64,000 nucleotides of DNA, taken from Escherichia coli. GTDB lineage: Bacteria; Pseudomonadota; Gammaproteobacteria; Enterobacterales; Enterobacteriaceae. The notes under the pieces were generated by a model. It saw nothing but the letters and a program-made list of their open reading frames with translations. It was not told where the DNA came from and searched no databases. The position numbers were made by a program, and so were the translations under genes. Below, one piece after another: positions 43,884 to 46,144 of the stretch. Each line of letters opens with the position of its first letter. Position 1 is the first letter of the stretch. The stretch lies in NCBI RefSeq assembly GCF_030384885.1, contig NZ_CP128613.1; one strand, given 5' to 3'.

Positions 43884-44104
43884 ATCATTCAACAAAATCA
43901 ATCACTTACAAAGCGTTTTTGATTTTGTCATGCATAAATCCCTGCATTAAAATTCCTTTCGCTCGCTCGATTTTTCTTACTACTGATGCTGTTTTTTACC
44001 ATTTTGCTGCGCGTCGGGCATCCACTTTTATGCTCTCGAGTTCACACTCTTAACAACAACTTAGCCATTCCCCCGTTTCTAATGACAAAACAGTTGAACT
44101 TCAA

Positions 44105-45007
44105 TTGTTCCAAACGGATCCTGTGAAGATATATCAAAGGAAATGGATTGTTGGAGGATGGATGAAAAGAAGTGAAATCAGGAAAGCACTGGAAGCATGG
44201 TTTGATGTAGAACGCTATGAGGCGATAGAGAAACTCACCTTACAGCAGTTTTATGTTGAGGTTGAGCGGCGCATCTTGGCTTACAGAATGTTGTTGAGCC
44301 GGAAAACCATACCTACCTTTAACCGATTAATGCTGGATGATTACCGCAACAAGATCCTCAGCGGTGAAATCTTTTTCAGTGGTGATACTGCCACCATTGG
44401 ACATGAGCTTGCCAGAACCTATGCGGTAAACCCTACGACACGAAGCCATGCGCAATTTTATGCGAAAACCCTGTCATTAACCGAAGCCACGCCTGAACTC
44501 TCTGGGTTAAGCCAGTCTGAATTTCTGTCCGAGTATCTGAAAGAGACATCCCTTAATAATCTTTCACGCATTACTGTCGATATTCATCTGGAAGAAGCAT
44601 CAACCGAAGAGATCATTGAACATCTGAAAGTGCTGCTCCCCCAATGGAAGAGACAGCTCAAGATGAAGTCTCCAGCTCCAAGAGAGTATCGTTTTGGTAA
44701 AAGCACATTCAGAAAAATCATTGAATATCGTCTTATCCCGATGATGGACCTGATCTTCTGGGGAGAAGATAATGGCATTAAAATCCCGCTTTCACTGATT
44801 TCTTCGTTGCTTCACGAGGACAGTGACAACGATCGTGATGAAGGAATGCTCAAGGCTACAGATTACCCGTTAGCAATGGCTTTTCTGACTGACGCGAGCT
44901 ATCTGAAATCGCTTGAAGATTACATGATGGAAAACAACCACTTGAGAGACTCCCCGGTTGAAAAGCATGTAGAAGACGACAGGAATAAGAAAAAAGAAGC
45001 CAAGTAA
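44105..45007 (+). CDS. hypothetical protein
   Basis: 300 aa ORF followed by hairpin terminator about 45010..45050; true start uncertain (possibly MKRSEIRK). Confidence 0.5.
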   Translation: MFQTDPVKIYQRKWIVGGWMKRSEIRKALEAWFDVERYEAIEKLTLQQFYVEVERRILAYRMLLSRKTIPTFNRLMLDDYRNKILSGEIFFSGDTATIGHELARTYAVNPTTRSHAQFYAKTLSLTEATPELSGLSQSEFLSEYLKETSLNNLSRITVDIHLEEASTEEIIEHLKVLLPQWKRQLKMKSPAPREYRFGKSTFRKIIEYRLIPMMDLIFWGEDNGIKIPLSLISSLLHEDSDNDRDEGMLKATDYPLAMAFLTDASYLKSLEDYMMENNHLRDSPVEKHVEDDRNKKKEAK

Positions 45008-45213
45008 AAAGGGTTACGTTCGCTCCGTGCGAACGTGATCGCATCCAGTGTTAACCGTTATCTTTCCATTCGCTTCCCTTCGACATTTTCAAAAAAAACT
45101 TCTTTGAACGTCCCTAAATTGTCATAAGCAAAATCGCTATCATTGTTCACGTCGAAACAACATAGAGAAAACAAAATCTCATAGAGATTACTTACAATAA
45201 TAGAGGACAGACA

Positions 45214-45432
45214 ATGAAAGAAAATATTGAAACCAGCGTAAAACGATTTATCCGCGTTCCTGATGTTTTAAATCGGGTGGGATTCAGTCGCACGACCTTA
45301 TATGAGCGTATTAAGGAAGGAAACTTTCCAGACAGAGTAAAAATAGGTCCGAGGTGTGTCGCTTTTGTTGAAAGTGAGATTGATGAATGGATTGAAGCAA
45401 CTATTCGGAACTCACGCCAGAACGCTGCATAA
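45214..45432 (+). CDS. alpA: AlpA-family phage regulatory protein / excisionase-like HTH
   Basis: 72 aa, ...FIRVPDVLNRVGFSRTTLYERIKEGNFPDRVKIGPRCVAFVESEIDEWI typical AlpA signature. Confidence 0.8.
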   Translation: MKENIETSVKRFIRVPDVLNRVGFSRTTLYERIKEGNFPDRVKIGPRCVAFVESEIDEWIEATIRNSRQNAA

Positions 45433-45513
45433 AAACAGAAACAAGATCTCGTGTCGAACAGGTAACTGTTAGCACAGGGCATCTTTTTACCCTTAACAAT
45501 AATGGAGAAGATT

Positions 45514-45804
45514 ATGAAGATTGAACTTATTACGACAAAACAGTTTATTGAACAAGCCGAATGTTATTTCAGGAACTATATGGACGGATTGCGGAGGAAT
45601 GCACCAGATGATTTTTATTATTTTCTCAACAATAAATACAATATGAATGACATTATGGAAAGTATCATTAAAAAAACACGGTATCATTTTTATGATGACA
45701 CCGAAGAAGGCAAAAGGAATCGGATTTATGGAGAAGTAAGCCACAGTAAGGTAAAGCAACACCTTCATCAGCTTTGGATTGTCTATAAGTGTGTATATCG
45801 CTAA
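45514..45804 (+). CDS. hypothetical protein
   Basis: ORF 45502..45804, RBS ggagaag before ATG 45514. Confidence 0.45.
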   Translation: MKIELITTKQFIEQAECYFRNYMDGLRRNAPDDFYYFLNNKYNMNDIMESIIKKTRYHFYDDTEEGKRNRIYGEVSHSKVKQHLHQLWIVYKCVYR

Positions 45805-45847
45805 TACTACAGCATTTTATTTTAATATTAACCAAAAGGAAAAGCCA

Positions 45848-46144
45848 ATGAATACATTTAAAAATAAAAATACTGAAATCTTTTATGTTGTGTCCTTGCA
45901 TATCTACGCAGAGCTTTTTAACTCAAAGGATAAAACGACCAGTAATATGATTATAACGCATGTAATGGATTATGAGTTTGTCTGTAGGCTAATCGATCTG
46001 GCGATGAGGAATGCTGAGAAGCATCTTCTGAAAAAAGCATGGAAAAAAAACGCTGCTGAAAAACTGTCTGAGGTGGATTTTAAAGGGGTTAAGCAGGCAT
46101 TAGCCAAAATGCATTATACGGTTCTGGCGGAATCAATATGTTGA
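45848..46144 (+). CDS. hypothetical protein
   Basis: ORF 45779..46144, internal ATG 45848 with A/G-rich RBS. Confidence 0.4.
   Translation: MNTFKNKNTEIFYVVSLHIYAELFNSKDKTTSNMIITHVMDYEFVCRLIDLAMRNAEKHLLKKAWKKNAAEKLSEVDFKGVKQALAKMHYTVLAESIC

Follow-up and report, generated by a model that had tools for sequence, protein, structure and literature searches.

The serU island of Escherichia coli is an element of 22.5 kb that encodes both a truncated and a full-length H-NS protein (H-NST and Hfp). It is related to the ROD21 island but differs from it in integrase and in site of integration, and IE3 is its probable source (PMC7074111). In uropathogenic E. coli (UPEC), the serU island carries TcpC (PMC7074111, PMC5521745). 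In the ROD21-like (EARL) islands, the integrase is located just downstream of an Asn-tRNA, while a recombination directionality factor (RDF, an excisionase) and an 843-bp gene of unknown function are located at the other att site (PMC6035254). In ICEKp258.2, the two genes at the RDF end are annotated as coding for DUF6387 and for AlpA, the latter of 72 amino acids (aa) (PMC10763509). The segment described here, positions 43884–46144 of a 64,000-nucleotide stretch of E. coli DNA (assembly GCF_030384885.1, contig NZ_CP128613.1; the whole stretch is referred to as the window), begins directly after the tRNA gene serU. Very probably it forms the end nearest attL of an integrative, mobilizable serU island of 22.4 kb, an EARL/ROD21-like derivative that recombines via a P4-type integrase at its far end. 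What supports this assignment is the set of genes present, the repeated att sequence, the precision of the insertion, an integrase that is intact in near-identical assemblies, and the conserved pairing of DUF6387 with AlpA.

The integration target is serU, the gene for tRNA-Ser(CGA), located with the program ARAGORN at 43794–43883 (plus strand). In homologous genomes a tRNA-Ser is annotated between mtfA and the island. In the window, mtfA (42903–43739, minus strand) is found just 5′ of serU, and the G+C content drops after serU, from roughly 0.47–0.50 to 0.31–0.44. The final 14 nucleotides of serU, CCCTCTCTCCGCCA (43870–43883, plus strand), form the attL core, and a second, exact copy is present at the distal end of the island in the homologous loci L001–L012. 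This copy of the serU 3′ end is the 14-bp attR core (66279–66292 in window-equivalent numbering, plus strand). It lies 165 bp past the integrase gene and is followed by zinT. In the source genome, the attR core and then CTTTATCAATGAC are predicted about 2.3 kb past the end of the window. As in other serU islands, mtfA lies on one side and zinT/yodB on the other, the insertion point is the serU 3′ end, and the tRNA end is directly repeated at the two borders.

The exact boundaries are defined by E. coli strain 2013C-4282, which has an empty serU site. Its sequence matches positions 37279–43883 of the window on one side with 100% identity and the attR flank on the other with 99.94%, and the 14-bp core is exactly what the two flank alignments have in common. 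Therefore, the insertion is 22,409 bp in length, with one copy of the core included. A synthetic empty site, in which serU is joined to the DNA to the right of attR (predicted attB, serU-CTTTATCAATG), was used as the query for other unoccupied sites. An uninterrupted attB is found in 3856 of the 5426 complete E. coli genomes searched, and both ends of the island in 385. The best matches to the island among the complete E. coli genomes of the collection reach 94.6–95.8%, and none of these genomes has this variant.

The initial annotation had pointed out that the serU boundary lacks an integrase, and this is true of the whole part of the island that lies in the window. No integrase is found in 43884–64000 by tblastn with two P4-type integrases (the only match is outside the island), nor in the PGAP annotation of homologous islands before their far end. 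The gene had been proposed to be either distal or lost. The first of these is supported, with the gene intact in nine near-identical assemblies, and the second is not. As refutation, the initial annotation had named an integrase and an attR repeat immediately beyond the window together with detectable excision; the sequence half of this holds, as both are found just beyond the window in the near-identical assemblies.

An identical copy of the PilV protein near the end of the window is encoded on public contigs. The last 3.5–11.7 kb of the window is matched at 99.99–100% by three Logan contigs, which extend past it. The extensions analyzed comprise those of the Logan type (L003, L004 and L005, at 99.99–100%) and six other loci (L007–L012) that are 99.7–99.98% identical to the window end. 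All nine independent assemblies continue in the same way, with a TIR gene, a 405-aa integrase gene, attR, and zinT. The TIR gene (CAP12/PCTIR type, 267 aa, minus strand; PADLOC PDC-S35) has its 3′ end in the last 34 bases of the window (63967–64000) and then runs off it; it was identified by gene calls and Pfam with the near-identical assemblies.

The integrase gene is located about 0.9–2.1 kb past the window end (64897–66114 in window-equivalent numbering, minus strand). By gene calls and Pfam in the near-identical assemblies, it encodes an intact P4-type tyrosine integrase, with Arm-DNA-bind_3, Phage_int_M and Phage_integrase domains. Alignment with the integrase encoded by the high-pathogenicity island (HPI) of Yersinia indicates that the catalytic motifs are retained, namely the Arg of ARSGE, the H-x-x-R motif (HGFR), the His of LAH, and the Tyr of AAY. 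The protein recurs in 48 blocks of the collection, some of them NCBI contigs of about 1 Mb. At least 80% of the gene is present in 410 of the 5426 complete E. coli genomes. The serU-type integrase is found at the zinT-proximal end in the nine near-identical assemblies, beyond the readable window.

The opposite, tRNA-proximal end is occupied by the DUF6387 and AlpA genes. The uncharacterised 300-aa open reading frame (ORF) that the initial annotation placed directly after serU is present, and its description can be refined. It is a DUF6387 gene (44162–45007, plus strand; Pfam E value 2.9e-53), probably of 281 aa. The mechanical ORF of 300 aa (44105–45007) begins with a TTG codon at 44105. The shorter protein (843 bp) is likelier because the Pfam match begins at residue 20, an in-frame ATG at 44162 follows the sequence GGAGGA, and the same start is used by PGAP in homologous islands. 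The ATG at 44162 is thus more likely to be the true start than the TTG at 44105. The start is 279 bp from attL, and the protein is 79% identical to 281-aa proteins of Salmonella and Pectobacterium.

The next gene (45214–45432, plus strand) encodes a 72-aa winged-helix protein, a putative RDF. Its earlier placement in the AlpA family is supported by the match to Phage_AlpA (PF05930, E value 9.5e-19). In the Protein Data Bank, the AlpA-family entry 8c3t is matched with an E value of 1e-6, and TorI with an E value of 0.18. The residues critical in TorI (F24, Y30, P39 and R47) are present in this protein, as they are in SEN1998, and they are the residues behind the argument for SEN1998 as an RDF (PMC8844411). 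The protein has the sequence features described for AlpA/TorI-type RDFs (PMC8844411), with its RDF activity putative. AlpA would act as the RDF of the island, and DUF6387 may take part in recombination or regulate it. The two genes are adjacent in homologs at 37%, 28% and even 23% identity.

Two small conserved ORFs follow alpA on the plus strand, one of 96 aa (45514–45804, alternative start 45502) and one of 98 aa (45848–46144, alternative start 45779). They are annotated by PGAP as hypothetical proteins in homologous islands. Neither has a Pfam or NCBIfam match, in agreement with their first description as small unknown ORFs. A promoter-like sequence, TTGTCA-17-TAAAAT (43925–43953, plus strand, 10/12), is located 5′ of the DUF6387-alpA pair in a consensus scan, as a weak hit. 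Promoter-like sites in this region are no more numerous than in shuffled sequences, and the site is therefore a candidate only.

Related gene blocks are observed in two other settings. The Klebsiella pneumoniae plasmid pINF177.2 (L013, CP110748.1; a 310-kb IncFIB/HI1B plasmid) has a block of DUF6387, AlpA, small ORFs, H-NS, DUF4756 and Rep at 5911–9311, with a 36% identical DUF6387 protein. There, the DUF6387 gene adjoins, divergently, the gene for a 551-aa integrase, which is the layout expected across the attP of a circular form. E. coli 042 (L006, NC_017626.1) has a second, divergent island at 19582–39898, with the order DUF6387-AlpA…H-NS…MobQ-TraD. It shows 71% DNA identity over a short stretch, carries a DotA/TraY-family gene, and is located downstream of ypjA, about 8 kb from a tRNA (tRNA-Ile by PGAP, anticodon CAT by ARAGORN).

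The position of the integrase appears to follow from the polarity of the att core. Both here and in the EARL islands, int and the DUF6387-alpA pair are transcribed inward from opposite ends of the island. In the excised circle they would become divergent neighbors, with attP between them. The EARL islands at Asn-tRNA genes, such as ICEKp258.2, have a core whose tRNA sense is directed at int (Table 1 of PMC10763509), and therefore int adjoins the tRNA. In the serU island, the attR core is on the plus strand, with int on the minus strand to its left. By these coordinates, the core is inverted relative to int, and as a result the element is inserted in the reverse orientation, with its RDF/DUF6387 end abutting serU. 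Core polarity would then be the cause of this orientation. The initial annotation had regarded an island end of this kind as unusual, a view that is not supported. An integrase at one att site, with an AlpA RDF and a conserved gene at the other, is the norm in this family (PMC6035254, PMC10763509, PMC7074111).

A more specific role for DUF6387 can be put forward tentatively, as a possibility that we consider less probable than not. The protein could be a third, hitherto unrecognised component of excision and integration, binding DNA and working at the att site together with the AlpA RDF; its fold would be all-helical and otherwise unmatched, with one subdomain resembling a winged helix. In this role it could shape or regulate the intasome, or control the divergent int and alpA promoters flanking attP. 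If so, this would account for why the two genes remain neighbors, beside the end of the island, in homologs ranging from 95% to as low as 23% identity.

The excision module (int, alpA, DUF6387 and both att sites) looks intact, and mobQ is full length. Its own integrase, RDF, att sites and relaxase, together with the lack of a type IV secretion system, would place the island among the integrative and mobilizable elements (IMEs). No genes for a type IV secretion system are found in the 22.4 kb in any annotation, and therefore the element would be an IME in need of a helper. Mobilization would be carried out by a helper conjugative element via the MobQ relaxase.

Several observations weigh against a mobile island with a distal integrase. 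The window ends at position 64000, so the integrase of the source genome would be the one read in the near-identical assemblies. The traD gene is frameshifted in this lineage, which may impair transfer, and no oriT was identified in the island. The attP junction, queried as a 314-nucleotide synthetic sequence (attR-left arm, core, attL-right arm; predicted to read TTTAGA-CCCTCTCTCCGCCA-ATCATTCAAC), is absent as a contiguous match from the 5426 E. coli genomes, and an exact 27-mer across the junction has 0 matches in the IMG/VR and JGI metagenome contigs. The missing attP is as expected and uninformative, because excision occurs in about 1e-6 of cells in relatives (PMC10763509). Finally, the serU island has been treated as immobile, spreading by large-scale homologous recombination, and is said to have no genes for mobilization or for transfer (PMC5521745). 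The latter statement conflicts with the presence in the island of a MobQ relaxase that scores above the NCBIfam cut-off, as well as TraD, pilin and PilV.

Of the alternatives, the one to be taken most seriously is that the recombination module is intact on paper and the island is effectively immobile. It would then spread only vertically or by homologous recombination of large chromosomal segments, and the defense cargo would not move as an element. This is possible, and we consider it doubtful. It agrees with the lack of an attP junction in every collection searched and with the extremely rare excision of the relative ICEKp258.2, in about 4e-5 % of cells (PMC10763509). However, a rare circular form is not expected in assemblies, and ROD21, IE3 and ICEKp258.2 do excise (PMC6035254, PMC10763509). 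The insertion is also precise, with a duplicated core, and the site is empty in the 3856 genomes with an uninterrupted attB, including one whose backbone is 100% identical. Moreover, int, alpA, DUF6387 and mobQ are all full length.

Loss of the integrase, which would make the island a fixed remnant with AlpA and DUF6387 as leftovers that have no recombinase partner, is very improbable. The related island in strain R1 does keep only an Arm-domain fragment of the integrase, and in the present case the gene is missing from the part of the island within the window, the source sequence ending at base 64000. On the other hand, the intact 405-aa gene and attR are found in nine of nine assemblies that are 99.7–100% identical to the window end, and 410 of the 420 E. 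coli genomes with any integrase match hold at least 80% of the gene. A further reading, in which an integrase from another locus (such as the one beside asnT) moves the island and no cognate one is needed, has a probability close to nil. An integrase-like ORF (42368–42667, minus strand) does adjoin asnT, 1.2 kb from serU. It is, however, a 57-aa Arm-domain remnant, a partial pseudogene at a different tRNA site, and it was rejected as a trans-acting recombinase due to this truncation. In addition, the cognate integrase with its own attR is found at the far end of the island. An island that recombines via its distal P4-type integrase is therefore the preferred reading.

The attP region was also reconstructed from positions 13793–13970 of L003 and 43884–44161 of the window. 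Copies of TAATGACAA are located 70 bp to the left and 197 bp to the right of the core, and an inverted copy (TTTTGTCAT) is located 40 bp to the right. The two attP arms share 13 8-mers, compared to 5.4 ± 2.9 in shuffled sequences, a modest enrichment. The repeats could possibly be arm-type integrase sites, which is suggestive only and is not claimed here.

The backbone of the island has the order DUF6387, AlpA, the two small ORFs, truncated H-NS, H-NS paralogue, DUF4756, RepL, MobQ, TraD, type IV pilin, PilV, and integrase. The truncated H-NS (46217–46459, plus strand) is of the H-NST type, with 80 aa and only the N-terminal dimerisation domain (PF22470, Histone_HNS_N, E value 2.4e-11). The full-length paralogue (48894–49298, minus strand) has 134 aa and is of the Hfp/H-NSB type, with an NCBIfam H-NS score of 174.8 bits, under the equivalog cut-off. 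The 134-aa form is typical of the EARL and serU islands (PMC6035254, PMC7074111), and the combination of an H-NST of about 80 aa with a full-length Hfp/H-NSB of 134 aa is that of a serU island. A RepL-like replication or maintenance protein is encoded at 50127–50684 (minus strand; PF05732, E value 2.5e-5) and is named RepL in homologous islands. The MobQ-family relaxase (58888–60369, minus strand, 493 aa) scores 246.5 bits in NCBIfam, compared to a cut-off of 200, and matches PF03389 (MobA_MobL). The traD-like pseudogene (61004–61317, plus strand) owes its frameshift to a 1-bp deletion near 61123. It is followed by a type IV pilin of the PilS/bundlin type (61713–62270, plus strand) and a PilV-like tip adhesin (Shufflon_N; 62323–63759, plus strand). 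These two were identified by their PGAP names and by Pfam (PF05307, PF08805 and PF04917 across the pair).

Four slots in this backbone vary in content between strains. Slot 1 (46832–48682 here) holds either NACHT or DUF6404, and is filled here by a 616-aa NACHT NTPase on the plus strand, spanning the entire slot. Slot 2 (53608–55705 here) holds either Thoeris or a ComEA-like gene, with a ComEA-family gene in R1 and in Nissle 1917 (EcN). In the window it contains a type I Thoeris pair on the plus strand, ThsA (SIR2-STALD, 53608–55077; PADLOC E value 9e-203) and ThsB (TIR, 55094–55705; E value 1e-85). Slot 3 (57696–58809 here) has two ORFs, or macro, TIR and TcpC, or a P-loop NTPase. The two ORFs in the window have no PADLOC match and are unrelated to tcpC. 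Slot 4 (63967–64000 and beyond) has the PDC-S35 TIR gene, a VOC protein, a 606-aa protein, or a pentapeptide protein. By appearance, the genes filling these slots are mostly anti-phage genes, and one such slot houses TcpC, the ‘virulence factor’.

A second island remnant is present at asnT, the gene for tRNA-Asn (42727–42802, minus strand), which is also just 5′ of serU and near mtfA. Its P4-type integrase is reduced to the first 57 aa (tblastn match 42395–42565, within the minus-strand ORF at 42368–42667). The fragment is 68% identical to the N terminus of the HPI integrase and is annotated by PGAP as partial in 2013C-4282. The asnT cargo, at about 37280–41811, includes hypE/hypF-like, HAD hydrolase and MFS transporter genes, and only 16 of the 5426 genomes have at least 80% coverage of it. 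Against E. coli R1, the cobT-shiA backbone (21452–32928 of the window) reaches only 95.7% identity; the asnT-serU segment (37279–43883) is the one with 100% identity to 2013C-4282. This contrast in identity between the flank segments fits the known HPI/serU recombination hot spot (PMC5521745).

As the recombinase and the directionality factor of serU/EARL islands are encoded at opposite ends, the absence of an integrase from the tRNA-proximal end does not necessarily make an island a decayed one. Such elements will be mis-scored by fixed windows and by island finders for which an integrase beside the tRNA is a requirement. Here, the Thoeris, NACHT and TIR genes are carried by an element with a complete-looking excision module and a mobilization gene set that has one lesion, the traD frameshift. 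The result chiefly concerns annotation and the question of whether this cargo is able to move.

The closest described system is the serU island of extraintestinal pathogenic E. coli (CFT073, 536 and Nissle 1917), with genes for H-NST, Hfp/H-NSB and TcpC. It occupies the same site, has nearly the same size (22.5 kb, compared to 22.4 kb here), and has the same order of backbone genes. Its head region is about 95–96% identical to that of the window, and the integrase gene of the EcN island is 96% identical in DNA. The two differ in cargo, with NACHT, Thoeris ThsA/ThsB, two ORFs and the PDC-S35 TIR gene here, and DUF6404, a ComEA-like gene, macro/TIR/TcpC and the 606-aa protein in the known serU island. 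The tcpC gene adjoins mobQ in the EcN island, whereas the island in the window has no tcpC. This gene is variable cargo and not part of the backbone.

The Yersinia HPI is a more distant parallel. In the work of Lesic et al. (2004), a study cited in PMC6035254, a P4-type integrase (Int) and an AlpA-family RDF (Hef) are reportedly encoded at opposite ends of this tRNA-integrated island. In comparison with the serU island, the HPI integrase is tRNA-proximal, adjoining asnT, and is only distantly related by alignment, and the HPI is not known to have a DUF6387 partner.

The EARL islands (ROD21, ICEKp258.2 and IE3) share with the present island an AlpA RDF (60–72 aa) and the conserved 843-bp DUF6387 gene near one att site, with a P4-like integrase at the other. 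They also share the MOBQ relaxase, TraD, the type IV pilin and PilV-like protein, the full-length and truncated H-NS, and the gene order relative to int. Here, the relaxase is intact and scores above its cut-off, and traD is present in frameshifted form. They differ from it in the target. In the EARL islands this is an Asn-tRNA, with the P4-related integrase directly downstream of it, whereas the present island is inserted at tRNA-Ser(CGA), has a different integrase that is tRNA-distal and on the opposite strand, and has the tRNA at its RDF/DUF6387 end. This layout is known from both the serU island and the EARL family, and the present copy differs only in its cargo and in the traD frameshift.

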